Positions 31,569 through 52,489 of a stretch of 64,000 nt of DNA are shown here, piece after piece. Positions within the stretch are counted from its first letter, which is position 1; each line of letters starts with the position of its first letter. The stretch comes from a virus (taxonomy: Duplodnaviria > Caudoviricetes): the IMG/VR virus record IMGVR_UViG_2731957577_000001, positions 32,001 to 96,000 of that record; one strand, given 5' to 3'. Made by a program: the position numbers and the translations under genes. The notes beneath the pieces were generated by a model. It ran no database searches. It had not been told where the DNA came from and saw only the letters and a program-made list of their open reading frames with translations.

Positions 31569-32629
31569 ACACGTTCCCAGACGTATGGGTTGAATGTGGG
31601 GCGGACCTAGACAATCCCAAGTTTCCGTTCACGCGAAAACATTATTATCCAGCCGGCCAGACGGATGAATTTCGCCAGCAATACGGAAACTGCGGCGTCT
31701 ATGAGACCGTGATGAAGTACGTTTCACCGGTATGGGTTCAAGACTCCAAGGGCCGGATGATCATCAATACGCGCGAGTCCCTGAAGTACGGTGACTTCTA
31801 TATGGACTTTGACACCAAACTCGAAAGCGATGAGGATTTCGAGAAGGTACGCGCGGATGTCAAAAGTGCGCTCCGGTATCTGAAGGTCATCCTGTCCATT
31901 GATCCCAGCCAGGTGTCTTTGTACTTCTCCGGCCATAAGGGGATTCATCTGACGGTGGACGCGCGCGTTTTGGGGATTCAGCCCCACTTGGCGCTCAACC
32001 AGATTTACAAGGAGATTGCCTCAGACATCGCGCAGTATTGCAAGAACAATACCTTGGATCTCAAAGTCTATGACGACAAGCGGATGTTCCGCATGGTCAA
32101 CTCTTTACACAAGAAGAGCGGGCGCTATAAGGTGCCGATTTCCCATGCCGAATTCGAGCGCTTGAGCCTCTCGCAAATTCGGGATTTGGCGATACAACCG
32201 AGATACGTGTTACCGCCGATGCCGCAAGTCAATCCAAGGGTCAAACATTCCATCCAGCGGGTCATCGACAAGTGGACACAGCGAATCAATCAACGCAAGG
32301 AATTTGAAGGTCGCTTTAAAAAGCTGGAGCAGCTCCCGGTTTGTATCCAAACGATGCTGAGTGAGAAGAACTTCCGGGAGACCGTGGATGAACGAAACAA
32401 CAGCGCCACAGCGCTCACGAGCTTCTTTATGCAACAGGGGATTGAACGCGAAGAAACCTTGGCACGGATGAAGCAGTGGAGCGAGGAACGCTGTCTGCCG
32501 CCGCTTCCAGCCCGCGACATCGAGATCATTGTCAACTCGGTCTACAACGGTGGATATCGCTACGGATGCGAGAGTTTCCGGCGTTTGAGTGGCGTATGTG
32601 ATCGAGACCACTGTCCTCTCTTTGCATGA
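31565..32629 (+). CDS. Archaeo-eukaryotic primase (AEP) with C-terminal PriCT/PriL-like Cys domain
   Basis: MDFD (motif I), FSGHKGIH (motif II), D...RMFRMVNS; C-terminal ERNNSATAL and LPVC...YGC...VC...HCP. Confidence 0.85.
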   Translation: MNTFPDVWVECGADLDNPKFPFTRKHYYPAGQTDEFRQQYGNCGVYETVMKYVSPVWVQDSKGRMIINTRESLKYGDFYMDFDTKLESDEDFEKVRADVKSALRYLKVILSIDPSQVSLYFSGHKGIHLTVDARVLGIQPHLALNQIYKEIASDIAQYCKNNTLDLKVYDDKRMFRMVNSLHKKSGRYKVPISHAEFERLSLSQIRDLAIQPRYVLPPMPQVNPRVKHSIQRVIDKWTQRINQRKEFEGRFKKLEQLPVCIQTMLSEKNFRETVDERNNSATALTSFFMQQGIEREETLARMKQWSEERCLPPLPARDIEIIVNSVYNGGYRYGCESFRRLSGVCDRDHCPLFA

Positions 32630-40442: not shown

Positions 40443-40652
40443 ATGCTTGTGAAGGGACTCGGTCTACGAGATGGAATCCGCCTCCTTCTTATGTCCGTCC
40501 TCATTCTCGGCGTCATGCTTTATCTCTCTTGGACCGTCAGTTTGGCGTTTGGGCTCTTCGTCTTGGTCTTTGGTGTGGTTGAAATCGGCACCGAACTGTT
40601 TTGGATCTGGCTTGTGCAAGGAGGTGAGGAACATGGACATCCGACAAGCTGA
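40443..40652 (+). CDS. Small membrane protein (2 TM)
   Basis: AGGAGGTG RBS; two hydrophobic stretches. Confidence 0.65.
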   Translation: MLVKGLGLRDGIRLLLMSVLILGVMLYLSWTVSLAFGLFVLVFGVVEIGTELFWIWLVQGGEEHGHPTS

Positions 40653-41109
40653 CCTCATTTTGGTGCGCGGCCATGGGCCAATTGAACGCATCATCGAACA
40701 CGTTACCGACAGCCCGTATTGTCATGTTGCAGGACTGGTCAAGGACAATGAACTCATTGAGGCCCAGGCTGGACACAAGATCGGATACCAAGCCCTGGAC
40801 TACTACGACGGTGTATCCGATGTCTTTACCTGCGACATGGCGACCGAGGAGCAACGGCAGCAGATCGTCGAATGGGTTGTCAACCGGCTGGGTGGTCATT
40901 ATGACTATCTGCTGATTGGTTGGGAGGCATTACACTACATTCTCCATGTCGACTTGCCTTACAACCCGGATCCGAACCGGTTTGACTGCTCCCAACTGTG
41001 GTCGGAAGCGTACCGCTCCGTCGGAATTGATTTGTGTCCAGGGATCAAGTTTCCCTCACCGGCAGACACCGCGAACTCTCCGGTACTCCGAAAGGTGGGC
41101 TCCTTTTAA
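40633..41109 (+). CDS. Permuted papain-like amidase/peptidase (YiiX/YaeF, C92 family)
   Basis: DLILVRG...SPYCHVAG...YDY...FDCSQLWSEAY...P.D (His before Cys). Confidence 0.85.
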   Translation: MDIRQADLILVRGHGPIERIIEHVTDSPYCHVAGLVKDNELIEAQAGHKIGYQALDYYDGVSDVFTCDMATEEQRQQIVEWVVNRLGGHYDYLLIGWEALHYILHVDLPYNPDPNRFDCSQLWSEAYRSVGIDLCPGIKFPSPADTANSPVLRKVGSF

Positions 41110-41144: not shown

Positions 41145-41591
41145 ATGGAACTGCTATCCGAGTATGTCAAACGCCAACGTAACAGACGTCGATGGGTCGT
41201 ATCCATCGATGAACTTGAACCGGACAGCTACCGCACGCCACTGACAGAACGACTGCGAGACTTTATCGGCCAGCCAATTACGCCAGATTTCCAGAATCGG
41301 TTACAGCGAACGTTCGATGAGTATTTTCAGGAGATGCAATATATCAACCCACTGTACCAACCGGAATATCTCTATGAGGATCACTTTGTGATCGTGCCGG
41401 GCGAACGCGAATTCAGGCTCTCACACATCCCTGAACCTTCATCGGTTCTCGTATGGATCAACGAGACTCTAGCCCATTTGTTTGATGACTATACCTTAGT
41501 CGGAGACACCATTGTGTTTTCCGAATCACCGAATCGGGGAGATCTGCGAGTCCAATATCTGGTTCGAGCGCGGAGGCCCGTATGGAACTGA
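41145..41591 (+). CDS. MEL-motif protein 1
   Basis: Starts MELLSEYV; C-terminal V.V.IN...DYT...I.F...P..GD..V.Y module. Confidence 0.8.
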   Translation: MELLSEYVKRQRNRRRWVVSIDELEPDSYRTPLTERLRDFIGQPITPDFQNRLQRTFDEYFQEMQYINPLYQPEYLYEDHFVIVPGEREFRLSHIPEPSSVLVWINETLAHLFDDYTLVGDTIVFSESPNRGDLRVQYLVRARRPVWN

Positions 41592-41881
41592 TTTCGGTCT
41601 ATATCGATCAACACCGGCCAACGGTTCACATTGACGATTTGGACATCGAGATTGACCTCGAAAAGTTGCAAATCACCGTGAGGTCGAGGGAATCCAGGAT
41701 GCTCTGTGTGGAGCAATTGCTCTATGAGCTTGGGATCTACAGCGCCGAGGAACTGCCGTGGATTGACATGCAACCGCCCGTCTATCTCGATGAAAAGACC
41801 ACGGTTCACATTGACGTGATGCCCAAGTACAGAAGACGTTTGTGGGAGGCCGTAAATTGGAACTCATTGCTGAATACATGA
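41582..41881 (+). CDS. MEL-motif protein 2
   Basis: GGAGG RBS; starts MELISVYI. Confidence 0.75.
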   Translation: MELISVYIDQHRPTVHIDDLDIEIDLEKLQITVRSRESRMLCVEQLLYELGIYSAEELPWIDMQPPVYLDEKTTVHIDVMPKYRRRLWEAVNWNSLLNT

Positions 41882-42075
41882 AAGCACAGGAAGAGCGAGA
41901 GGAAGCCATTCAGGAAACCATCAATCGATTCATCGAGGAAGTATGTAACCAAATGCGTCAGGCCCTTGATTTCGATTTACATTCAAACGATGAAGTTCGC
42001 AACTACTTTGGTGAAACTCCATCTCCTACGTACCAAGTGCTTCTCCACTATGGGGGTGAAGATGTATGGAACTGA
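41857..42075 (+). CDS. MEL-motif protein 3
   Basis: GGAGG RBS then TTG 41857; (M)ELIAEYM. Confidence 0.7.
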   Translation: MELIAEYMKAQEEREEAIQETINRFIEEVCNQMRQALDFDLHSNDEVRNYFGETPSPTYQVLLHYGGEDVWN

Positions 42076-42290
42076 TTTCTGCCTACCTTGAGAACCGTGA
42101 CAAGGCACGACTCGATGAGTTGACCGAAGCCTTCAACACGTTTCTAGACAGCTACAAGAAATTCATGGAGGACGCTGGAATCATTCCGTATTACGGGTTT
42201 CCCAATGACCAACCCACTTGGGTCACACCGATATGGCAAGAACCTCGAAGACCTGACTGGGAGGGCGCTGTACATTATGCAGCCTCTTGA
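42066..42290 (+). CDS. MEL-motif protein 4
   Basis: GGGGTGA RBS; starts MELISAYL. Confidence 0.75.
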   Translation: MELISAYLENRDKARLDELTEAFNTFLDSYKKFMEDAGIIPYYGFPNDQPTWVTPIWQEPRRPDWEGAVHYAAS

Positions 42291-43020
42291 GCTGACCGTA
42301 AACGATCTGTACGAATTCAAGGCTTGTCCCCTGCGGTTTAAGTTCATGCGTTTGGACAAGCAGCCCGTCAAGATGACGGAGAATGATGGCCTGCGGGAAG
42401 CCGTGAAATCCACCATTAGCTACTTCTATTTCAACTTGGCACAAGGCAAGTTGGTGGGCATGGAAGATCTGAAGCAGAAGTTTGGTTCCATCTGGTATGA
42501 GCGCAACAAGATCTACAACATCATGTATGACGACAAAGTCAAGCAGCGAAAGCGGGAGCTAGAAGCCATCTCGATGTTGGCCTCATTTCATCGCCAACAA
42601 AAGTTCCACCCCGACAAAGTGGTGGCCGTAAATCTGGACTTTCGGATCCCATTTGGAGATGACCTCTATATCTCCGGTCAAATCCCCTTGATCCGGGAAA
42701 GTCCACGGGGTCTTGAGATCGCGCACTTCAAGGTCGGCAACCACAAGCCGGATGAGTTTTGGACCAAGACCGACATGGGGCTAACCATCGAAGCCATTGC
42801 CTTTGAGTCGATCTTTAAACAGCAGGTGCCAAGCATCTGTCTACACTATCTCAAGGCCGGCACAACGGTCTATACCAAGCGGACACGAAAAGACTACCAG
42901 CGTCTCTACAAGACGATCCGCATGATCAAAAAGACGATGGAGGAAGGCTGGTATTATCCTCGAGAGTCCTATCACTGTGACAAATGTCCAGCCAAACAAC
43001 CCTGTATGGAGTGGACTTGA
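42277..43020 (+). CDS. PD-(D/E)XK (RecB/AddB-like) nuclease-fold protein, catalytic acids apparently lost
   Basis: FKACPLRFKF...CDKCPAKQPC four-Cys staple; ISGQIPLI and IAHFKVG where G.ID and IVDYKTG are expected. Confidence 0.75.
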   Translation: MQPLELTVNDLYEFKACPLRFKFMRLDKQPVKMTENDGLREAVKSTISYFYFNLAQGKLVGMEDLKQKFGSIWYERNKIYNIMYDDKVKQRKRELEAISMLASFHRQQKFHPDKVVAVNLDFRIPFGDDLYISGQIPLIRESPRGLEIAHFKVGNHKPDEFWTKTDMGLTIEAIAFESIFKQQVPSICLHYLKAGTTVYTKRTRKDYQRLYKTIRMIKKTMEEGWYYPRESYHCDKCPAKQPCMEWT

Positions 43021-43403
43021 TGGAACTCATTCAAGCCTACCTAAGCCGCTGTCCGGAGCCAAAGAGCAAGCCGATCCAACATCACGCACCCTGGGCTCGT
43101 GATGTCACATCGTTGTCTCGTCGCGCGAATGCACTCGAAGACCTCTTCCTCGAGCACGGTGTGGCACTGGCTCAATATCGGGCCCTGGAATTCGCAACCC
43201 GTATAGAACGCGAGCACCTAAATGACATCCATAATGTTGAGCGAGAATGGGAACAGGCTCTGCAGGAACTTCTTGAGGAAGAACACCGAAAACGACAAAG
43301 ACAAAAGAGACGATGGCACACAGTACCGTTGATATGGACATGTCTGTGTCTTCTGTTGATAGGACTGGACCTGATCATAGCGATCCTACACCGCACTCAT
43401 TGA
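43020..43403 (+). CDS. MEL-motif protein 5 (C-terminal TM helix)
   Basis: TGATG overlap; starts MELIQAYL; ends in a hydrophobic helix. Confidence 0.75.
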   Translation: MELIQAYLSRCPEPKSKPIQHHAPWARDVTSLSRRANALEDLFLEHGVALAQYRALEFATRIEREHLNDIHNVEREWEQALQELLEEEHRKRQRQKRRWHTVPLIWTCLCLLLIGLDLIIAILHRTH

Positions 43404-43419
43404 AAGGAGGTGAGAGGAT

Positions 43420-43614
43420 ATGAAATCCTTCAATGAACTCCAAGTCATCGTGGCCAATGAGATTAAGCAACACGGCGCCGTGACACCCCAGACTGCCGTA
43501 ACCCTCATCGGCCATATTCAAGCCTTGGAAGACAAGGTTCGCAAACTCGAACAAAAGCTCCAAGCCACCAAGCCAAGGGACGAAGGTACCAAAGAGAGCA
43601 GTGGGGAAGAATGA
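43420..43614 (+). CDS. Small coiled-coil hypothetical protein
   Basis: AAGGAGGTG RBS. Confidence 0.65.
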   Translation: MKSFNELQVIVANEIKQHGAVTPQTAVTLIGHIQALEDKVRKLEQKLQATKPRDEGTKESSGEE

Positions 43615-43656
43615 GCCAACATGGGACACAGGGGTGAAAAACCAAGGAGGATTCAT

Positions 43657-44565
43657 ATGCAAGAACGGTTTTTCACCACGGATGCACACGACTTGCAAAT
43701 GGTCAGGGCCGAACAGATCGGCGTGGACTATGTAGACTGGGGTCTACAGGTGATCATGGCACCCGAGGTCTGGAACAAAAGCATAGGCCAAGGCGTCAAA
43801 GTCGGCATCCTCGACACAGGCGTCGATTTCACGCACCCTGATCTCCGGGATAACATCGCCGCCTACATGGACTTCACGGGGTCTCCGGCCGGCCCACGAG
43901 ATGTAGAAGGACATGGCACGCATGTCGCCGGCATCATCGCCGCTGAATCGAACAATGTGGGCCTTGTCGGCGTCGCACCAGGAGCCAAGCTATATTGTGC
44001 CAAGGTCCTGGGCGATAACGGCAGTGGCGGGTTTGACGCCATCATCCGCGGCATTGATTGGTTGATTCAACAGGGCGTGGATGTCATCAATATGTCCCTG
44101 GGATGTTCCGTCGAGCCTCCGCAGGAAGTCCATCAAGCGATCCAACGCGCCGCGGCCGCCGGGATTGTCATCTGCGCAGCCTGTGGCAACGAGAATACCG
44201 ACGTCGGCTGGCCGGCCAAGTACGATGAAACGATTGCGGTATCCGCAATGGGTATGGACTACAACCGGGCGGAGTTTAGCAATCACGGCGTGAAAAACGA
44301 GATCATTGCGCCGGGTGTTGACATCCTATCTACATTCAAGGGAAGCACCTACGCACGTCTGTCCGGCACCAGTATGGCGACTCCAATTGTCACAGGTTCT
44401 GTCGCCTTGTACATCTCGATGATCAAGGCGCAGACCGGCAAACGTCCACCGGCGGAACAGATACATGCGGCGATTGACGCCTCCGCCGTTCACCTTGGCA
44501 AGGAAGGAAGAAACGAGGATTTCGGCGTAGGACTGATAAATCTCGTGAAACTCTTAGGAATTTGA
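43657..44565 (+). CDS. Subtilisin-family (S8) serine protease, intracellular type
   Basis: ILDTG, HGTHVAG, GTSMATP triad motifs; no signal peptide; AAGGAGG RBS. Confidence 0.95.
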   Translation: MQERFFTTDAHDLQMVRAEQIGVDYVDWGLQVIMAPEVWNKSIGQGVKVGILDTGVDFTHPDLRDNIAAYMDFTGSPAGPRDVEGHGTHVAGIIAAESNNVGLVGVAPGAKLYCAKVLGDNGSGGFDAIIRGIDWLIQQGVDVINMSLGCSVEPPQEVHQAIQRAAAAGIVICAACGNENTDVGWPAKYDETIAVSAMGMDYNRAEFSNHGVKNEIIAPGVDILSTFKGSTYARLSGTSMATPIVTGSVALYISMIKAQTGKRPPAEQIHAAIDASAVHLGKEGRNEDFGVGLINLVKLLGI

Positions 44566-44567
44566 AT

Positions 44568-44593
44568 AGGGGGCTATGTTCCCCCTGTTTTTT
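44568..44593 (+). terminator. Intrinsic terminator
   Basis: AGGGGG...CCCCCT then GTTTTTT. Confidence 0.6.
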
Positions 44594-44605
44594 CGCTTCA
44601 GCCTA

Positions 44606-44653
44606 TGCTATCATGTGTCTGTGCAATGCATTACACTGTTGCAACGCATTACA
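44606..44653 (+). promoter_or_regulatory. Extended -10 promoter followed by two tandem operators
   Basis: TGcTATCAT at 44606-44614; TGCAATGCATTACA 44622-44635; TGCAACGCATTACA 44640-44653. Confidence 0.7.
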
Positions 44654-44673
44654 TCAAATCGAAGGAGAGGAAA

Positions 44674-44829
44674 ATGATGGGCCACAAAGTCCAGATCATC
44701 GAAGATCTTGGCAAGGGCGTCCTCCGAGAGCAATTGGCCAAGAAGGGAGAGAAGTCGGATGCTCATCGGGAGCAAACGCAAGAAGAACTTCGTCCTGGAG
44801 AGTCAAACGCACGAGCTGAAGACGAATGA
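44674..44829 (+). CDS. Small hypothetical protein (51 aa)
   Basis: AAGGAGAGG RBS directly after the operators; overlaps next gene by 71 nt. Confidence 0.5.
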   Translation: MMGHKVQIIEDLGKGVLREQLAKKGEKSDAHREQTQEELRPGESNARAEDE

Positions 44830-45217
44830 TCAGGTGCTGATTGTCCAGCAGAAGTCCGATGGCGGAATCACCAACTATGACTTGATTCTCGAGCCGGACA
44901 AGTTTGATCAGCTTGGATCTGAGGTGCGCCTGTCTTTCGAGGAATACTGCGAAACCATCAACGATCTGGTCACGGAGGAAGAAGACGACTGGGATTCGCT
45001 CCGGATGAAAGACCAAATCAACATGACACGGGATGCGATCCTCGAGCGGACGATTCTCAAATACGCCAAGGAAAAGTACGGCCTCGATCCGGAGCAATTT
45101 AACGGACACGACATGAATTACATCAAGCGATATGGGTCGGACGGGAGTTTCCTCGGCGAAGCCGTCATCGTCACCTTGACGATGATCCCGACGATGAATG
45201 CGGCCGTGAAAGGGTGA
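44759..45217 (+). CDS. Hypothetical acidic protein
   Basis: GGGAG RBS; GTGA coupling to rusA. Confidence 0.65.
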   Translation: MLIGSKRKKNFVLESQTHELKTNDQVLIVQQKSDGGITNYDLILEPDKFDQLGSEVRLSFEEYCETINDLVTEEEDDWDSLRMKDQINMTRDAILERTILKYAKEKYGLDPEQFNGHDMNYIKRYGSDGSFLGEAVIVTLTMIPTMNAAVKG

Positions 45218-45777
45218 GACACATGTTGGTCCCCCTGGAGCTGCCGATGATGATGTATGGCAAGTACAAAACCAGCTGGTATGTCAACGACCCGTCCGGT
45301 GCCACGGATCCAAGGACCGGGAAGCCGAAGAAAGTGAAGAAGACAAAGATCGTAGAGCACTTAGAGGAACGCGGCGATCCCGGGTTTTATCCAAGTGTCA
45401 ACCACATCTATCAGAACATCCGTGGCGGCGGCAAAAAACTGACAAAAGCTGCAGAGCAACTACTAGCAAAGTGGCGCAGTCTGGCGAAAGCATGGGCGGA
45501 GGAAGTCGGTTGGGAATGCACGCACGGTGAAAAGGTCATCGTCGAAGTTACGGCCTTCTTCCCAGACAACCAAAAGAGAGACACGTCCAACGTATACAAG
45601 CTGATGATGGATGCTTTGGAGGGTGTCATCTACGATGACGACTACTACGCCCTTCCGCGAACGATGGACTTTCAAGTCTTGCCCAAGGATAGCGCAAAGC
45701 GACCGTATTTTCGGCTCCACATCTACAAGAAAACCGACGAAGATCTGCATGGGCGTCAGGTTGCAGGAGGTTTTTGA
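45214..45777 (+). CDS. rusA: RusA-family Holliday junction resolvase
   Basis: PSVNHIY; KRDTSNVYKLMMDALEGVIYDDD. Confidence 0.9.
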   Translation: MRHMLVPLELPMMMYGKYKTSWYVNDPSGATDPRTGKPKKVKKTKIVEHLEERGDPGFYPSVNHIYQNIRGGGKKLTKAAEQLLAKWRSLAKAWAEEVGWECTHGEKVIVEVTAFFPDNQKRDTSNVYKLMMDALEGVIYDDDYYALPRTMDFQVLPKDSAKRPYFRLHIYKKTDEDLHGRQVAGGF

Positions 45778-46532
45778 TGTCGGACGAGTTGGTCCTGCGC
45801 TATCAGCAAACTGGAGACTGCGCCGGCCTCATCGAGGCATACCGGCCATACATCGAGAAGTTTCAGCGCATGTTTCTCACTGGAGACATTGACTTTGGAA
45901 ACTACGACATCCGACGGTTCCTCGCCTGTTACATATCGGACAAAGAGACGGTACGAAGTCTATGCCGTGGAAAATACCACAGCAAGCAGGCCATTCAGGA
46001 AGCCTATCGGGTGCTCGAGAAAATACGCCGGGTCTTTGACGGCTATGAGTCTGACGAACTCTTTCATGAGTTGTTGATCCCGTTTCTCACATGCGCAAGG
46101 TGTTACGAGCCTTCCGGCAAGACGTTCAGTCAATATCTGTACAGCTGCTTTCGATACCGACTCAAGCGGCTCATCGATGAACGACTGTTGGATACCAATG
46201 GGGAAATGGCCTATTGGGACATGCACGAGCCCGCCAGTGAAGCCTTAGAGGACGAGTTGGACCTCGACCGCCCTGAGTACATGGATCCCAGCGAGCCCGT
46301 GGATTTGCACAGTCTACTCTGGCTCAACGGCACCCTCTGCGGAGACACGTTCCGGGATCTCACGTACACCGAGCGATACATCCTCGTCAAGGCCTATGAA
46401 GATGGTCTGGATGAACGAGCCATCGCACAACTGACAGGGTTACACCATCGCTCTGTATACCGAATCCGCAAACGATTGATTGAGCATTTCCGCAACCTGC
46501 GGGATAAAGGAGAATTGAAATGGATCAGGTAG
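45774..46532 (+). CDS. Phage sigma-70-like factor
   Basis: LVLRYQ..G, region-2-like ELLIPFLTCARCYEP..KTFSQYL, region-4 LTYTERYIL...IAQLTGLHHRSVYRIRKR. Confidence 0.7.
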   Translation: MMSDELVLRYQQTGDCAGLIEAYRPYIEKFQRMFLTGDIDFGNYDIRRFLACYISDKETVRSLCRGKYHSKQAIQEAYRVLEKIRRVFDGYESDELFHELLIPFLTCARCYEPSGKTFSQYLYSCFRYRLKRLIDERLLDTNGEMAYWDMHEPASEALEDELDLDRPEYMDPSEPVDLHSLLWLNGTLCGDTFRDLTYTERYILVKAYEDGLDERAIAQLTGLHHRSVYRIRKRLIEHFRNLRDKGELKWIR

Positions 46533-46780
46533 CCATCATCAACCCCGATGCGAAGGTCGCTGGAATGGCTTGCAAGACGAAACAAGACGAACACACGTTA
46601 ATTCCACTGGACTGCTACGGCCGTGACATCGAATTCCTCGAGGACCGAATTGTCATCAAAAATCTCATCGTCCCGCACGCATGGTTTGAAGCCGTCCAGT
46701 TTTTCGACGAGAAGCACTGGAACGATATTGTCGAAGCGATTCGTCGGAAAGAAGCCCTCGATCTCTCGTATGCTCAATAA
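46520..46780 (+). CDS. Hypothetical protein
   Basis: AAGGAG RBS. Confidence 0.65.
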   Translation: MDQVAIINPDAKVAGMACKTKQDEHTLIPLDCYGRDIEFLEDRIVIKNLIVPHAWFEAVQFFDEKHWNDIVEAIRRKEALDLSYAQ

Positions 46781-46785
46781 TTCTC

Positions 46786-46834
46786 TTGATTTCACACCTT
46801 CTTACGTTTATAATGATTGTGTAATGTATTACAC
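46786..46834 (+). promoter_or_regulatory. SigA promoter with operator at +1
   Basis: TTGATT-17-TATAAT; GTGTAATGTATTACAC at 46819-46834. Confidence 0.8.
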
Positions 46835-46849
46835 GAAGGTTGTGAAGAC

Positions 46850-47707
46850 ATGCCTGTGCTGCAACCGATGATCGATCGGTTCCTTCAACAGAAGCAACAG
46901 CAAAACGACCGCCCGATGCGGAACAAGTTGCATCCATCGACGATCGGCATGTGTCAACGCAAGATCGTCTTTGAGATGATGGTTGTGCCTCGGGCGCTGG
47001 ATCCGCCGCGATTGGCTCGGGTGTTCGACAATGGACACAAGGTTCATGAACGATATGAGCAACTGTTCATGGACATGGGCATCGGAGTGGCACGAGAAGT
47101 TAAACTGGAGAAGGGAGACATCTCAGGTCACACCGATGCCTTGATCAAGCTGTATAGCTTTGCGGCGCCACAGGGCGAATACTGGCTTGTGGAACTCAAA
47201 AGCGCCTCCTCGAAATCCTTTGAGTGGATGGTCAAGAACAACCAACCCAAGAAGGAACACAAAGCGCAACTGACGTTCTACATGCACCTAAGCGGGATCC
47301 ATAAAGGCGTCATCCTGGTGGAGAACAAAGACAACCAGGAGATCTGGGAGTACGAGATGGAGTACGATCCAGTCTTCGGCCAACAGCTTGAACAAAAGGC
47401 ACTGTGGCTGATTGATTTAGCCAAGCACCGCATCCTACCGCCGATCCCAAGGGGTTTTTCGCCGTCTCATTACAAATGCGCCTACTGTCCATTTGCGATG
47501 TATTGCCACTATGGATCCCGAACCGAAGATGGGCAAGAGCGTTACCCGATTCCGTTCATGCCGGGGACGGAAGCGTATCGGGATATACTCAAGATCATCG
47601 AAGCGATGGAGCAAGGCAAGTCGATTCCCAACGTCATTGAAGGGGATACCATCGGGGAATTGATCCAAGAAATGACAAGAAAAAGCCAGACGTATGTCGA
47701 CGCTTAA
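46850..47707 (+). CDS. Cas4-like PD-(D/E)XK exonuclease (solo, phage type)
   Basis: HPSTIGMCQRK, GHKVHE, SGHTD, VELKS, QLTFYM, CAYCPFAMYC. Confidence 0.85.
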   Translation: MPVLQPMIDRFLQQKQQQNDRPMRNKLHPSTIGMCQRKIVFEMMVVPRALDPPRLARVFDNGHKVHERYEQLFMDMGIGVAREVKLEKGDISGHTDALIKLYSFAAPQGEYWLVELKSASSKSFEWMVKNNQPKKEHKAQLTFYMHLSGIHKGVILVENKDNQEIWEYEMEYDPVFGQQLEQKALWLIDLAKHRILPPIPRGFSPSHYKCAYCPFAMYCHYGSRTEDGQERYPIPFMPGTEAYRDILKIIEAMEQGKSIPNVIEGDTIGELIQEMTRKSQTYVDA

Positions 47708-47730
47708 ATCCGATGGTAAGAGAGGTTGGG

Positions 47731-48051
47731 ATGAGCATGGTATTCGTCGATGTCGGTTTCAGCAACTTTATGGACGCGAGCAAGATCATTACGATCAGCC
47801 GGCCGGATTCGAGCCCGATCCGCCGGTTAGTCGGCCACGCCAAGGACAACAATCGGTACATCGACCTGACGCAAGGGAAGAAGACCCGTTCGATCATCGT
47901 GAGTGCCGGCGAACAAGGTCTGGTTGTCACCGCTTCTGCGGTCCAGACTTCCACGATTATCGGGCGGATTCGCAAGGCGTTCGAAGACTTGTTTGTCTCC
48001 CGCTTGGATCCCGCTGGCTTGGCGGTGATTGGAGAAGGTGGGTCCGAGTAA
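47731..48051 (+). CDS. remA: RemA (DUF370/YlzA) family matrix/biofilm regulator homolog
   Basis: VGFSNF...KIITI..PDSSPIRRL...AK.....IDLTQGKKTRSIIV...SAVQTSTI..RI. Confidence 0.85.
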   Translation: MSMVFVDVGFSNFMDASKIITISRPDSSPIRRLVGHAKDNNRYIDLTQGKKTRSIIVSAGEQGLVVTASAVQTSTIIGRIRKAFEDLFVSRLDPAGLAVIGEGGSE

Positions 48052-48076
48052 TCCCCAACAAAGGAGCGATGGACGC

Positions 48077-51000
48077 ATGTGCAACCTGGTTCACCTGCAC
48101 GTTCACTCCGAGTTTAGTGAGTTGGACGGGCTCTCCAAGGTGCAAGACCTGGTGGCGCGTGCGAAAGAGATCGGGAGTACCGCCCTGGCCCTAACAGATC
48201 ATGGCGTCATGGGTGGTATTCCCGATTTTATCACCGCATGCGAACAAGCAGGAATCAAACCCATCCCGGGCGTCGAAGCGTATATGACGCGCAACCGGCT
48301 GCTCAAGGGCGAGTTTCTCAAGGAACGCCGGCTGGAGTTGTGCGAGAAATACAAGATCAAGGAGAAGGTCCTCAAGACCTTTATCCGCACCATCGAAAAG
48401 CAGCCGGCCAGCTTCATGGATGAAGCGACGGAACTACTCAAGGACTATCTCATGGCTCCGCCATCGGGCGACCTCTTTCATCTGACGTCGGGCGAGCTAT
48501 CCAAAGACGACGTTCTGAAAGAATTCCATCGGGAGGTCTATGACTATCTCTCGTATGACAACTATCACATCGTCCTGCTGGCGATGAACAATCAAGGGTT
48601 GGAGGATTTGTATGCCATCATCAGCGACGCTCATCTTCATGGATTCTATAGCGATCCTCGCACTGATCTTGCTTTTATTCGCGATCATGGGCTCGGGAAG
48701 AATCTCATTGCGACTTCGGCGTGCCTCGGCTCTTGGTTCGCTCGGCTGTGCCTTGCTGGGCTTATTGATGACGCTGTTGCTTTTATAGAAGAGTGCAAGG
48801 AGACGTTTCATGCGTTTTACCTGGAGAAACAAGCGACCCATCTGCCAGAGCAGATTCAGCTCAACCAGATCATCGACGATTTAGCGGCGCGGACAAACAC
48901 ACCGAAGATCATCACAACCGATGCGCATTATGCCCGCCAAGAGGACATCGACACGCATGACATCCTCATCTCGGTCAACTTCGGCAAGTGCGTCTTGGAT
49001 CCAGATCGCCTCCGTTACGCACCGGAATTCTGGATGAAATCCGAAGAGGAAGTGCGCAGCATTTGCGACGATGAGGAAGCCATTCTCAATACGAAGCGCA
49101 TTGCCGAGATGGTCAATGTCGCGCTTCCGAAGGAGCCGCTATTTCCAAAGTTCATTGTCGAAGAGGGAGACAGCCCGGAAGAGATTTTACGCAAGACAGC
49201 CTGGGATGCGCTGTTCCACTACGTCATCAAGAAGCCAGTGGACCTCGAGCGCTACTGTCAGCAGCTGGCCTATGAACTTGATGTCATTACAAGTCTTGGC
49301 TTTGCCGACTACTTTCTTGTGGTTTCGGACTACATACGCTGGGCGAAACAAAATGGGTATGAAGTCGGGCCTGGACGCGGGTCGGCCGCGGGTTCTCTGG
49401 TCGCATTCATGCTCGACATTACGACACTTGACCCCATCAAAAACAACCTGATGTTCGAGCGGTTCTTGAACCCCGAAAGAGCGGGGTATCCGGACATAGA
49501 TGCAGATTTCAGCTATGAGGCCGCCAAAGCGGTTCAACAGTATCTTAAAGACAAGTATGGCCAGGATCGGGTTGCACAGATTGGCACCTACGGCACCTTC
49601 GCCGCGCGGAAGGTCTGTCGTGCAGTGGGGAAGGCCCTTGGGTATAGCGATCAGGATCAGGACAAGTTTGCCAAGGCCATTCCGGCCAGACCCAACATCA
49701 CCCTCGAGGAAGCCTACAACGAAGAGCCGTTGGTCCAGGCCTACGCTCGCCAGCATCCTGACTGGTGGAACGCCATGAAGAAACTCGAAGGACACATCAG
49801 TCATCATGGTGTGCATGCTGGAGGCGTCGTCCTTTCTCCAGTCCCGTTAACGAAAGTGGTACCGCTTCGTCTGGATAGCGAAGGCCTTGCGACCACGCAA
49901 TACGATATGGAGTGGATTGAGAAGTTCCTGGTCAAGTTCGACATCTTGAAACTCGATACGCTGGATCTCATCAAGTACACCATGCAATACGCGGGCATCT
50001 ATGGGAAAGTCGATCTGAATGAAATTGATCTCAATGACCCGAAGGTGTACGAGGAGATCTACAACAAGCTGAATTTGGCCGGCATCTTTCAGTGCGAGTC
50101 GAAACTTTACCATGACATCATCTCCGCGATGAAGCCGAACTGCTTTGAGGATATCTCGGTCATCGTGGCGCTCGGCCGCCCAGGACCATTGGACCTCATC
50201 CCGGACTACATCGATCGGAAGTGGGGCCGAAAGAAAGTCGAGTACCCATTGCCTGAACTGGAGCCGATTCTCAAAGACACCTATGGAGTCTGGGTGTATC
50301 AAGAACAAATGATGCAGGCCAGCGTCATTCTCGGCGGACTCACACGCGGTCAGTCCGACATGATCCGAAAGGGTGTCGCCAAGAAAAAGCATGACCTCAT
50401 GCACAAGTGGATCGACCTGATGATCTACGGGTCTGAGCGGTACAAAGAGATGCGCCGCGAACACAATGCCATCGTCAATGCGATGAAAGCACGCGGGGAA
50501 GAGGTCCCGAAAGAGATGATGGACAAATACGATCCAGACCTGGATAAGGTTCCGTATGTGGAAGGTGCCATCAACCGGGGTTTTGATGAAGCCACCTTGC
50601 TCAAGATCAAAGAGGACTGGATCAAGTTCGGTAACTACTGCTTCAACCGCGCACACTCGGCTGCATACGCCAAGTTGTCGGTTCAAACGGCATGGCTCAA
50701 GACGTACTATCCTGTCGAGTTCATGGCGGCACTCCTGACCATTGCTGGTGACAAGAAGGCCAAGGATGGCACGCCAAAGACGGTCCTGTATATGCAGGAA
50801 TGCGAGAAGATGGGCATCAAGATTCTGCCGCCGGATATCAATGAATCCAACGCATCTTGGACACCCGTTGTCCATCCGGAAACGTACCAGAATCACCTCA
50901 AGGTCCACGTGGATCTGGGAACGAAGCCGGAAGAAGTGCAACTCAAGCCCGATGCCATTCGCTTTGGTCTGGGCGCCATTGCAGGGATCTCCAAAGAATC

Positions 51001-51547
51001 GGTCGATGAGATCATCAAATATCGTCCGTATACCTCGGTCGATGATGTCGTCGAACGGGTCAGCAGCCGCAAGATCAACAAGAGCAAGATTGTGGCTTTG
51101 ATCAAATCGGGCGCCTTTGACTCGATCAACCCAAACCGAAATCTCTTATGGCGCAATTACATCAAGAGTCGCGGGGAGGACTACGAGGCGATTCCAGCCC
51201 GCACCACCAAGAAAGACATCATGAGCTATGAGCGGGAGTATCTTGGCACCCTCATTACCGTACAGACCCGCTGGGACACGATTCCCAACGGGAAGGAAGA
51301 CGTACAGATCACGGGCTATGTCCTGAAGGTTGAGCCCTTTACGGCCAAGAAAACCGGTAAAGAACATTGCCGAGTCCTCGTGGAGACGCAAGAGGACGAG
51401 CGAAATGTCCTCGTATTCGGGACCAAATGGCAGCAACATAAAGGCCGCTTGGCACCCGGGCTGAAGGTCATTATCAAAGGCAAGAAGTCTGGCGAGGACC
51501 TTTTGGCAGATTCCATTCACTATGTCATGGCTGGGGTGAGCGCATGA
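48077..51547 (+). CDS. dnaE: DNA polymerase III alpha subunit (DnaE type)
   Basis: HLHVHSEFS.LDG, TDHG, GPGRGSAAGSLV, FERFLNPER..PDIDADF, KFDIL, YCFNRAHS, OB-fold end. Confidence 0.97.
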   Translation: MCNLVHLHVHSEFSELDGLSKVQDLVARAKEIGSTALALTDHGVMGGIPDFITACEQAGIKPIPGVEAYMTRNRLLKGEFLKERRLELCEKYKIKEKVLKTFIRTIEKQPASFMDEATELLKDYLMAPPSGDLFHLTSGELSKDDVLKEFHREVYDYLSYDNYHIVLLAMNNQGLEDLYAIISDAHLHGFYSDPRTDLAFIRDHGLGKNLIATSACLGSWFARLCLAGLIDDAVAFIEECKETFHAFYLEKQATHLPEQIQLNQIIDDLAARTNTPKIITTDAHYARQEDIDTHDILISVNFGKCVLDPDRLRYAPEFWMKSEEEVRSICDDEEAILNTKRIAEMVNVALPKEPLFPKFIVEEGDSPEEILRKTAWDALFHYVIKKPVDLERYCQQLAYELDVITSLGFADYFLVVSDYIRWAKQNGYEVGPGRGSAAGSLVAFMLDITTLDPIKNNLMFERFLNPERAGYPDIDADFSYEAAKAVQQYLKDKYGQDRVAQIGTYGTFAARKVCRAVGKALGYSDQDQDKFAKAIPARPNITLEEAYNEEPLVQAYARQHPDWWNAMKKLEGHISHHGVHAGGVVLSPVPLTKVVPLRLDSEGLATTQYDMEWIEKFLVKFDILKLDTLDLIKYTMQYAGIYGKVDLNEIDLNDPKVYEEIYNKLNLAGIFQCESKLYHDIISAMKPNCFEDISVIVALGRPGPLDLIPDYIDRKWGRKKVEYPLPELEPILKDTYGVWVYQEQMMQASVILGGLTRGQSDMIRKGVAKKKHDLMHKWIDLMIYGSERYKEMRREHNAIVNAMKARGEEVPKEMMDKYDPDLDKVPYVEGAINRGFDEATLLKIKEDWIKFGNYCFNRAHSAAYAKLSVQTAWLKTYYPVEFMAALLTIAGDKKAKDGTPKTVLYMQECEKMGIKILPPDINESNASWTPVVHPETYQNHLKVHVDLGTKPEEVQLKPDAIRFGLGAIAGISKESVDEIIKYRPYTSVDDVVERVSSRKINKSKIVALIKSGAFDSINPNRNLLWRNYIKSRGEDYEAIPARTTKKDIMSYEREYLGTLITVQTRWDTIPNGKEDVQITGYVLKVEPFTAKKTGKEHCRVLVETQEDERNVLVFGTKWQQHKGRLAPGLKVIIKGKKSGEDLLADSIHYVMAGVSA

Positions 51548-51723
51548 TTCGACGATTCAAGTGCTGGCTCTTTGGACACGACTGGCGCTTCTCTCATTAT
51601 GGGAATCTGTATCATCGTTTCGAGCGGTGCGCGAGATGTGATACCATCCGCGATTTAGGGTGGGATGACGACTATGCAAGGTCTGTGGAGATGTGGGTAT
51701 GGAACTCATCGAGGCTTATCTGA
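51544..51723 (+). CDS. DUF1660-like small phage Zn-binding protein (59 aa, absent from ORF track)
   Basis: ATGA overlap with dnaE stop; MIRRFKCWLFGHDW...CARC. Confidence 0.7.
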   Translation: MIRRFKCWLFGHDWRFSHYGNLYHRFERCARCDTIRDLGWDDDYARSVEMWVWNSSRLI

Positions 51724-52061
51724 GAACAACCATTGATAGCTGTCAGTTTTGGATCTCGGATCGAAGCTATGCGCCTTGGGAAATTAACTGTGAATACATT
51801 GAAATCAACTACCATCCCACAGACCCACTTGATTGTTCCGGTATCATCTGCATCCAAAAAGACGTAATGCAAGAAGTAGTTCAATACGCAGAGGGATGGC
51901 AGGTGAGGCCTTCTACATTGATCCTGTGTTATGAAAACGGGGATATGGTGCCCTATGAAGTCATGTCCCTCAACATTGAAGAGTACCAAGGCGACTCTGT
52001 CCAGTTCCGGTTCACGGCCAAACGAGGAGAGGACACATGGAACTTATCACAAGATATCTGA
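51699..52061 (+). CDS. MEL-motif protein 6
   Basis: GGAG RBS; starts MELIEAYL. Confidence 0.75.
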   Translation: MELIEAYLRTTIDSCQFWISDRSYAPWEINCEYIEINYHPTDPLDCSGIICIQKDVMQEVVQYAEGWQVRPSTLILCYENGDMVPYEVMSLNIEEYQGDSVQFRFTAKRGEDTWNLSQDI

Positions 52062-52489
52062 GGGCCCGCCAACCTCATTATCAACCATTCCTTGCTGCGG
52101 GATACCAGCGATGTGTGGCGCGAAGAGGCGACCATGCGATCGACGTATTCATCAATCCAGCTTCTTTTTTAGCCACGTGTGAAGAGAGGAGGCTTATGTT
52201 CGATCGAGAGGGTTATCGCATCCATCCCGGAACCCTCCTGGGAGGCAGCGCCTCCTTCTCGATGGGCTTTGAATCGCGCGAGGATCTAGACTTGTGGTTT
52301 GGCCTTATAAATGGTCATACCTTTGATCTGGAACTCTGGCACGCGACATTGACGGGATGCTACGTCATCAGCTATTCCACGAGTCACGAAGTCATCCCTC
52401 AAAATCACACCGACAATCGCGTGATGGAGTACCAGGTTTGCGTATGTTTTCAGCATCTCGCTTTGAAACCAAACAAATTTGTGTCATAA
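52037..52489 (+). CDS. MEL-motif protein 7
   Basis: GAGGAGAGG RBS; starts MELITRYL. Confidence 0.75.
   Translation: MELITRYLRARQPHYQPFLAAGYQRCVARRGDHAIDVFINPASFLATCEERRLMFDREGYRIHPGTLLGGSASFSMGFESREDLDLWFGLINGHTFDLELWHATLTGCYVISYSTSHEVIPQNHTDNRVMEYQVCVCFQHLALKPNKFVS

Follow-up and report, generated by a model that had tools for sequence, protein, structure and literature searches.

A clade-wide N-terminal MEL peptide on small proteins of diverse folds in large tailed elements of Bacilli

The 64,000-nucleotide (nt) stretch of DNA analysed here (the window; positions 32,001 to 96,000 of the IMG/VR virus record IMGVR_UViG_2731957577_000001) is part of C7, a 198-kb contig from a 3.6-Mb assembly. 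C7 is a large myovirus-like element, with TerL, portal, major capsid protein (MCP) and sheath-like genes; its other genes include those for a primase, DnaE and DnaN, for a ribonucleotide reductase and for a YonO/RdRP-like RNA polymerase. Seven small genes of the window begin with the same short peptide, here called the MEL tag, whose fuller form, M-E-L-[I/V/L/M]-x-x-Y-[L/I/...], occupies the first 7-8 residues of the protein; for all counts, the core motif M-E-[LM]-hydrophobic-x-x-Y at the start of an open reading frame (ORF) was used. The tagged starts lie at 41145, 41582, 41857 (TTG), 42066, 43020, 51699 and 52037, just where a preliminary description of this DNA had placed them, and each of the seven is preceded by a Shine-Dalgarno-like (SD) site 7-10 nt upstream. 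A six-frame scan of the window with EL[IL]xxY[LVIM] gave 10 matches, seven of them immediately after a start codon. Tagged genes 1-5 sit between the reductase and a subtilisin-family (S8) protease and are interrupted by a nuclease gene, and tagged genes 6 and 7 come straight after dnaE, which separates the two clusters. The genes concerned are the following, with product lengths in amino acids (aa):

41145..41591, + strand: tagged gene 1, MELLSEYV, 148 aa; GGAGG SD sequence; tag, unique region and C-terminal beta domain of ~55 aa
41582..41881, + strand: tagged gene 2, MELISVYI, 99 aa; 10-nt overlap with gene 1
41857..42075, + strand: tagged gene 3, TTG start, MELIAEYM, 72 aa; GGGAGG SD sequence; 25-nt overlap with gene 2
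42066..42290, + strand: tagged gene 4, MELISAYL, 74 aa, acidic; 10-nt overlap with gene 3
42277..43020, + strand: PD-(D/E)XK (Cas4-like) nuclease, untagged; Pfam PDDEXK_1, E 1.7e-8
43020..43403, + strand: tagged gene 5, MELIQAYL, 127 aa; its start and the upstream stop share one base (TGATG)
43657..44565, + strand: subtilisin-family (S8) serine protease, PF00082; untagged, inside the tagged array
48029..51547, + strand: DnaE-type DNA polymerase III alpha; anchor gene through which relatives were located
51544..51723, + strand: small untagged ORF, 59 aa, DUF1660-like; Pfam DUF1660, E 1.7e-4
51699..52061, + strand: tagged gene 6, MELIEAYL, 120 aa; tag helix, then tail-tube/Hcp-like beta barrel
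52037..52489, + strand: tagged gene 7, MELITRYL, 150 aa; tail-tube/Hcp-like body

Six of the seven tagged genes overlap the preceding gene in the same +1 phase, and five upstream products read ...WN..., both as previously described; the W-N reading is a mechanical outcome, because the +1 overlap at A-TGG-AAC-T forces it. Thus, the 3' end of the 59-aa ORF that overlaps gene 6 reads ...VWNSSRLI. In the same phase L3-I4 encoded as CTG-AT gives TGA, and in the related element G001, where the Glu2 codon is GAG, the overlap would read W-S.

None of the seven tagged proteins of the window had a match above threshold in Pfam or PHROGs. A comparison of genes 1, 2, 5, 6 and 7 revealed several kinds of body. 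Residues 85-145 of gene 1 match a domain repeated in 41 other proteins (E 1e-10 to 1e-3); this DUF4183-like or tail-fibre-like domain has untagged copies in virion-module proteins of C7, of the relatives G001 and G004, and of Moorella phage MTATph1. For gene 2, the ESM-Atlas model (predicted local distance difference test, pLDDT, 0.76) is similar to the Ig-like beta sandwich of DUF3244 (template modelling, TM, score 0.61). Gene 3 is strongly acidic, with a net charge of -11. The last ~30 residues of gene 5 include an unbroken hydrophobic stretch (...VPLIWTCLCLLLIGLDLIIAIL...) which, read directly from the sequence, looks like a tail anchor. The AlphaFold2 model of gene 6 (pLDDT 75.5) has seven strands after the tag helix and, in Foldseek, matches 4qxz, Hcp1 and phage tail-tip/tube chains (E 1.7e-4 to 1e-3). 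Orthologues of this gene were found in G003 (MELLQQYT), in G004 (MNLMEVYL) and in an element of the Bacillus cereus group (MEGK-ELVTCY), with z scores of 4.6-47. Residues 20-150 of gene 7 (ESM-Atlas model) match Hcp/TssD (TM 0.61), contractile injection system tube and Dit-like proteins, and its sole match among 5.8 billion proteins is a 97-residue fragment, 100% identical and probably its own record. By the tube-like fold that their models share, genes 6 and 7 may be old paralogues.

The earlier view that the seven genes are unrelated and dissimilar after residue ~8 is therefore correct at the level of BLAST and in that several folds are present (DUF4183-like in gene 1, Ig-like in gene 2, barrels in genes 6 and 7, a C-terminal anchor in gene 5), so that the tag is not the beginning of a single full-length domain family. 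It was nevertheless overstated, since genes 6 and 7 belong to one tail-tube-like fold class and tandem paralogues occur elsewhere in the arrays.

The tag is strongly concentrated on C7. The core motif opens 15 ORFs on this contig and one in the other 3.43 Mb of the assembly, and this single match is spurious (a GTG start with no SD sequence, within a longer frame); the comparison with the host that had been suggested thus placed the motif far above background. Within the predicted proteome of C7, 14 proteins have the motif at residue 2 and nine have it internally, where shuffling expects 4.5 anywhere; per proteome, residue-2 motifs number 14-18 and internal counts are close to chance. When the DNA pattern was sought in 64 genomes of the host's order, an excess was found in this genome alone (12 matches against 0 in the reversed control, all on C7). 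A host gene with MELISTY in a sister genus was rejected as a tag carrier, as its Met lies inside the reading frame of a membrane protein and lacks an SD sequence.

A DnaE search in IMG/VR retrieved relatives with DnaE proteins 55-68% identical, two of them complete (G001, 229 kb; G004, 206 kb) and four partial contigs (G002, G003, G005 and L023). Tagged starts number 17 in G001, 19 in G004, three in G002, seven in G003, four in G005 and one in L023, which corresponds to ~7-9 tags per 100 kb in contigs of at least 30 kb; tagged genes make up about 6-8% of all genes (~1 in 15) in elements of the clade. Three further loci with the same backbone carry 6, 4 and 2 tags, including the variants MNLVEKY, MNMVEEY and MELTQPY and the shifted form MEGK-ELVTCY; tagged elements with this backbone occur in the B. 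cereus group, B. velezensis and Virgibacillus. Similar contigs of 197-250 kb were recovered through the S8 protease in Paenibacillus, the B. cereus group, B. velezensis, Virgibacillus and Priestia, and NCBI files the G001 protease under a plasmid of Paenibacillus rhizovicinus; the element type is common and probably a phage-plasmid. No cultured phage of this clade was found in the phage collection. The nearest named phage, MTATph1 (DnaE 38-43% identical), has the same backbone and no tags, its small genes being untagged. The tag was likewise absent from 72 distant DnaE-phage loci (1.25 Mb, one spurious match) and, within 10 kb, from the loci of four further element types with a homologue of the S8 protease, and no description of it was found in the literature on the phage group, on shared N-terminal motifs or on YonO-type Paenibacillus jumbo phages. 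The MEL tag is confirmed as a real, clade-wide feature.

In an alignment of 46 tag sequences M1, E2 and Y7 are invariant and L3 is nearly so. Position 4 takes I, V, L or M, position 8 takes mostly L or I, and Phe never stands in for Tyr7. Synonymous codons are all in use (GAA/GAG, six Leu codons, TAT/TAC, and ATT/ATC/GTN/CTN/TTR/ATG at residue 4) and first and second codon positions are fixed across the tags of the clade, whose carriers range from 33 to 52% GC. The synonymous variation reported for L3, I4 and Y7 in the window is real. The invariance of TGGAACT reported with it is true of the seven window copies and does not extend beyond them, given that other tag copies on C7 use GAG, TTA, TTG and CTA. 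Since the tag persists over 33-52% GC while every synonymous site varies, the codon comparison indicates that selection acts on the MEL peptide, not on the DNA, in agreement with what had been proposed from the window alone. Orthologous families hold the tag in every genome, sometimes shifted by 1-3 residues (MS-ELVGAY, MSK-ELVQAY) or with E2 replaced by N.

The bodies behind the peptide are diverse throughout the clade, where BLAST sorts the 44 strictly tagged proteins into 34 clusters. Outside the window they include a PRA-PH/MazG-like enzyme whose Pfam domain begins at residue 21-23, a dUTPase/DCD enzyme whose domain begins at residue 37, a TerL-like P-loop ATPase kept in all three complete genomes, a trio of paralogues on C7 (one with a weak SH3-like Pfam match), a pair of paralogues on G001, and a conserved alpha+beta protein without a PDB match. 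Most of the products are acidic (median pI 5.5), like the other small proteins of the element. A helical tag had been anticipated from the spacing of its hydrophobic residues, and AlphaFold does predict a short helix, at low confidence, in the two models inspected. In the conserved family A, it spans residues 2-8 (mean pLDDT 43 over residues 1-10) and is followed by coil at residues 9-18 and a core at pLDDT 75-89; in gene 6, it spans residues 3-10 (pLDDT 63), directly before the first strand. The tag is thus modelled as a two-turn helix outside the folded core, the way a docking peptide appears in a monomer model, a resemblance which at such low confidence proves nothing.

Several virion-type folds are encoded away from the genes in which they would be expected. 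The two tail-tube/Hcp-like proteins (window 51699-52489) and the TerL-like P-loop ATPase domain (C7:162589-163209) are surrounded by replication genes and lie well away from the genuine tail and packaging genes, the real TerL being at C7 171953-173716. These proteins could be decoys or assembly regulators.

Some untagged neighbours also deserve mention. The PD-(D/E)XK nuclease is a conserved anchor in the tagged array and keeps its place throughout the related elements and in MTATph1. The gene at window 40633-41106, previously called a C92 peptidase, is not confirmed as one and has just a sub-threshold NlpC/P60 match (E 0.0065); its family is present in G003 and G004 and absent from G001. A sigma-like factor (window 45774-46532), with weak Sigma70_r2 and r4 matches plus an HTH_23 match, starts with MMSD-ELVLRYQQTGD; it was rejected as a tag carrier, this start being presumably the usual beginning of sigma region 2. 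DnaE is unbroken in C7, G001 and G004. It is split in G002 and L023 (705 + 418 aa, ~275-nt gap; L004 7337-10979 and L023 1-2953) and in G003 (503 + 654 aa, ~1.2-kb gap with a 278-aa ORF; L005 9983-14637), probably by intron insertions.

The gene slot behind DnaE illustrates how tag and body part company. It is always tagged in six relatives, with genes of 134-160 aa, and the bodies cannot be aligned (z about 0-2) except those of G003 and G004 (z 7.3); a seven-protein alignment of the slot, essentially unalignable, was set aside. The tag itself also changes by genome. At residue 4, G003 and G004 have M, G001 and G005 have V or I, G002 has L and C7 has I, V or L, a genome specificity supported by permutation (p = 5e-4) that holds inside orthologous families too. 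At the same time, the Glu2 codon is GAA in 12 of the 14 C7 tags and GAG in 12 of the 14 G001 tags, although GAA usage is 46% in both elements and untagged ME- genes have no Glu2 codon bias. The uniformity of a synonymous codon within a genome points to gene conversion or to the recent birth of tagged genes in each genome. Because this synonymous site has been homogenised within genomes, the pattern at residue 4 is not proof of a co-evolving reader. The suggestion that the shared start acts as a micro-homology for cassette exchange gains indirect support from the homogenised Glu2 codon and from unrelated bodies in the same slot, while the invariance claimed for TGGAACT is just local.

Taken together, the data lead us to favour, with moderate confidence, the MEL tag as a portable N-terminal handle read by one common partner. 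The peptide would be a lineage-specific N-terminal short linear motif of ~200-230-kb tailed phages or phage-plasmids of Bacilli, through which one conserved partner, most likely encoded by the element itself, would sort, dock or process a whole set of mostly fast-evolving accessory proteins. New tagged genes would arise in each genome behind an existing start module, via tandem duplication or recombination, which would explain both the arrays and the genome-specific Glu2 codon. The partner could act by loading the proteins into the prohead, as the capsid-targeting sequence (CTS) of phage T4 does, or the tag could be recognised or removed by the subtilisin-type protease of the array, with hydrophobic residue 4 as P4 and Tyr7 as P1. 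The earlier idea of a portable sorting or docking signal is partly supported, in that the tag, as an N-terminal module on different folds, behaves like a portable signal; virion, adaptor and protease are putative destinations.

A number of observations weigh against a common reader. Part of the tagged set consists of true paralogues (the C7 trio, the G001 pair and, by fold, genes 6 and 7), so common descent explains some of the sharing. DNA-level homogenisation, as seen at the Glu2 codon, could alone keep tags alike for a while, and through it residue 4 could change in concert without any reader. Both concrete versions have difficulties of their own: for loading into the capsid, a conserved cleavage site is absent, the genes lie among replication genes, and the products are mostly acidic, one resembling a tail-anchored membrane protein; for processing by the S8 protease, homologues with 47-53% identity occur in five untagged loci.

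The alternative that best survives, possible although doubtful in our view, dispenses with the reader altogether. A few ancestors would have been amplified by tandem duplication and would have diverged very fast, with the first helix or the start module (ribosome binding site plus first codons) as the slowest-changing or repeatedly recopied part, and the role of the tag would be local, for example a good translation start or the folding or stability of small proteins. The tandem arrays linked by overlapping stops and starts, the genuine paralogue groups, the tube-like fold common to genes 6 and 7, the similar length of the genes behind DnaE, and a Glu2 codon homogenised within genomes, unlike that of untagged ME- genes, all fit it. 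However, the tag also precedes unrelated folds with wide families of their own (PRA-PH, dUTPase, P-loop ATPase, DUF4183-like) in which the Pfam domain starts 20-36 residues past the tag, and these genomes also have untagged copies of the DUF4183-like domain. Moreover, the bodies have diverged past detection whereas the peptide has remained constant, with Tyr never replaced by Phe; because this constancy coexists with varying synonymous sites, purifying selection acts on the tag residues in particular. Nor would a translation-start effect need Tyr7.

Within the handle reading, a capsid- or virion-targeting signal like that of T4, carrying varied small proteins into the prohead to be injected with the DNA, for instance as anti-defence factors, is considered unlikely. 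The T4 CTS was proposed from the start as an analogy and is indeed the closest published analogue: packaging needs no more than its first 10 residues, targeting resides in residues 4 and 7, and this peptide is all that T-even internal proteins have in common (PMC9026906, PMC3012670). As on IPI, IPII, IPIII and Alt, the MEL tag is a peptide of ~10 residues at the extreme N-terminus, present in several copies per genome on otherwise unrelated, fast-evolving small proteins of one phage (15 starts on C7, several folds), with hydrophobic or aromatic residues at positions 4 and 7. The element is large and myovirus-like, with portal, MCP and sheath, several bodies resemble virion parts, and P1 DarB has an N-terminal packaging signal too (PMC9024508). 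Nevertheless, the T4 peptide, of different sequence (MKTYQEFIAE), ends in a prohead-protease site (residues 8-10), whereas neither L/I-x-E nor any other conserved site follows the MEL tag in the logo (positions 9-14). A search of C7 for S77, S78 and ClpP-type prohead proteases gave no match, although the S77 search also missed all 14 control genomes and other families were not searched. Furthermore, the MEL tag is found on 15-19 carriers per genome, known enzymes included, whose genes are scattered on both strands in replication or early-looking blocks; their acidic products are no different from the other small proteins of the element, and one would hardly expect nucleotide-metabolism enzymes or a predicted tail-anchored membrane protein among head cargo. 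In the head module itself (C7:175485-181520), two proteins (262 and 441 aa) that belong to no Pfam or PHROG family separate the portal (733 aa) from the MCP (361 aa). The encapsulation peptides of bacterial microcompartment enzymes and the P1 DarB signal are comparable N-terminal amphipathic helices, by which unrelated proteins reach a protein shell (PMC9024508 for DarB); unlike the MEL tag, they comprise 15-30 residues followed by a linker and have no sequence similarity to it, and the only shell known here is the capsid.

Recognition by the S8 protease of the array, with a cut behind Tyr7 that would activate, release or destabilise all the tagged proteins at a defined moment, appears improbable. 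The earlier assignment of this gene beside the larger cluster to S8 is confirmed by PF00082 and by best PDB matches to subtilisins and intracellular subtilisin proteases (E 7e-57 to 3e-45); among 8,000 candidates scored, 5,807 homologues were found at E<=1e-20. The translation contains the Asp, His and Ser motifs of an intact triad and has neither signal peptide nor I9 prodomain, as in an intracellular-type subtilase. Subtilisins favour an aromatic or large hydrophobic residue at P1 and a hydrophobic one at P4, and the tag supplies both, with residue 4 (I, V, L or M) and the invariant Tyr7. In intracellular subtilisins, an N-terminal [LVI]-[IFLV]-P-[YFH] peptide lies over the active site; this pro-peptide (LIPY/F) is short and N-terminal like the tag, has a hydrophobic pair and Tyr/Phe, and docks on a subtilase that lacks a prodomain, as does the one of the array (PMC6220982). 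That motif, however, is contiguous, contains Pro and is located on the protease itself, whereas the MEL tag has two spacers and no Pro and is carried by other proteins, the phage S8 protease being devoid of it. The shifted tags (MS-ELVGAY, MSK-ELVQAY and MEGK-ELVTCY) show that a free Met1 is not strictly required, and no other head-maturation protease was recognised in the S77, S78 and ClpP-type searches on C7. Tag and protease do not, however, occur only together: the protease occupies the same array slot in all nine tagged loci, but its 47-53% identical homologues in MTATph1, L125, L129, L130 and L131 have no tags within 10 kb. In addition, the tag is modelled as helical whereas subtilase substrates bind extended, and subtilase S1 pockets normally take Phe, Leu and Met also, which leaves the strict Tyr unexplained.

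Lastly, it is highly improbable that the nucleic acid (ATGGAACT...) is the conserved entity, as a translation, coupling or recombination signal with the peptide as a by-product: although TGGAACT is unchanged in seven window copies, the stereotyped +1 overlap puts TGA 10 nt after the start in two cases and the Glu2 codon is specific to the genome, each tag codon varies synonymously over the clade with first and second positions fixed, the tag survives a shift from 52% to 33% GC, and this pattern of conservation is that of a protein, which already contradicts a nucleic-acid signal as the main cause.

Other gene products of the element were considered as the reader of a portable handle. DnaN (C7:98613-99971, - strand, 452 aa) has N-terminal and acidic C-terminal extensions of ~30 and ~60 aa, respectively, and no tblastn match in MTATph1. 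Like clamp-binding peptides, the tag is a short motif on many unrelated clients that would share one hub, and its hydrophobic 4-7-8 spacing equals that of the PIP box, Qxx[LIM]xx[FY][FY]. However, this is a beta clamp of bacterial type, the known ligands of which are extended peptides (QL[SD]LF or QLxLxL), and the tag has no Gln, a helical 3-4-7-8 spacing and a Tyr7 that is never Phe. DnaN was set aside, since clamp motifs look different: the C-termini of DnaE in the clade (WEVDIA, WNVEMT, FNVVFS, FQVEFS) resemble ordinary beta-clamp tails, and an internal 'TELLKDYL' in DnaE is not conserved. An AAA ATPase (phrog_8638; C7:121773-123362, - strand) combines PF00004 and AAA_lid_3 with a 250-aa N-domain that has no assigned function; it was discarded because homologues are common in unrelated untagged phages (Corndog-like mycobacteriophages, Vibrio and Pseudomonas phages), and one is also found in a streptococcal satellite. 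Phyletic profiling against MTATph1 yielded 52 clade-specific families, a number too large to point to one candidate, and fam16, which adjoins the S8 protease, was dropped as a clade-specific candidate when a homologue was found in MTATph1.

Returning to the portable handle read by one common partner, a bolder form of it can be put forward tentatively. An element-encoded reader would recognise M-E-L-x-x-x-Y, including the hydroxyl of the Tyr, and would handle 15-19 proteins per genome as a group, among them nucleotide enzymes and copies of virion folds (tube, TerL-like ATPase, fibre-like domain) as possible decoys, with a pocket that co-evolves with residue 4 of its clients; such a sorting system would be new.

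The tag marks a functional class in the 'dark matter' of large phage genomes, so that 6-8% of the genes of these elements can be studied as one set, with one bait peptide. Residue 4 and a synonymous codon have changed in concert, which offers a clean case in which to follow tag spread and co-evolution. If the tag is a loading or docking signal, its eight residues would be short enough to send foreign proteins to the same destination in Gram-positive hosts, for which the T4 CTS, as a tool for sending proteins in Escherichia coli, provides a precedent.

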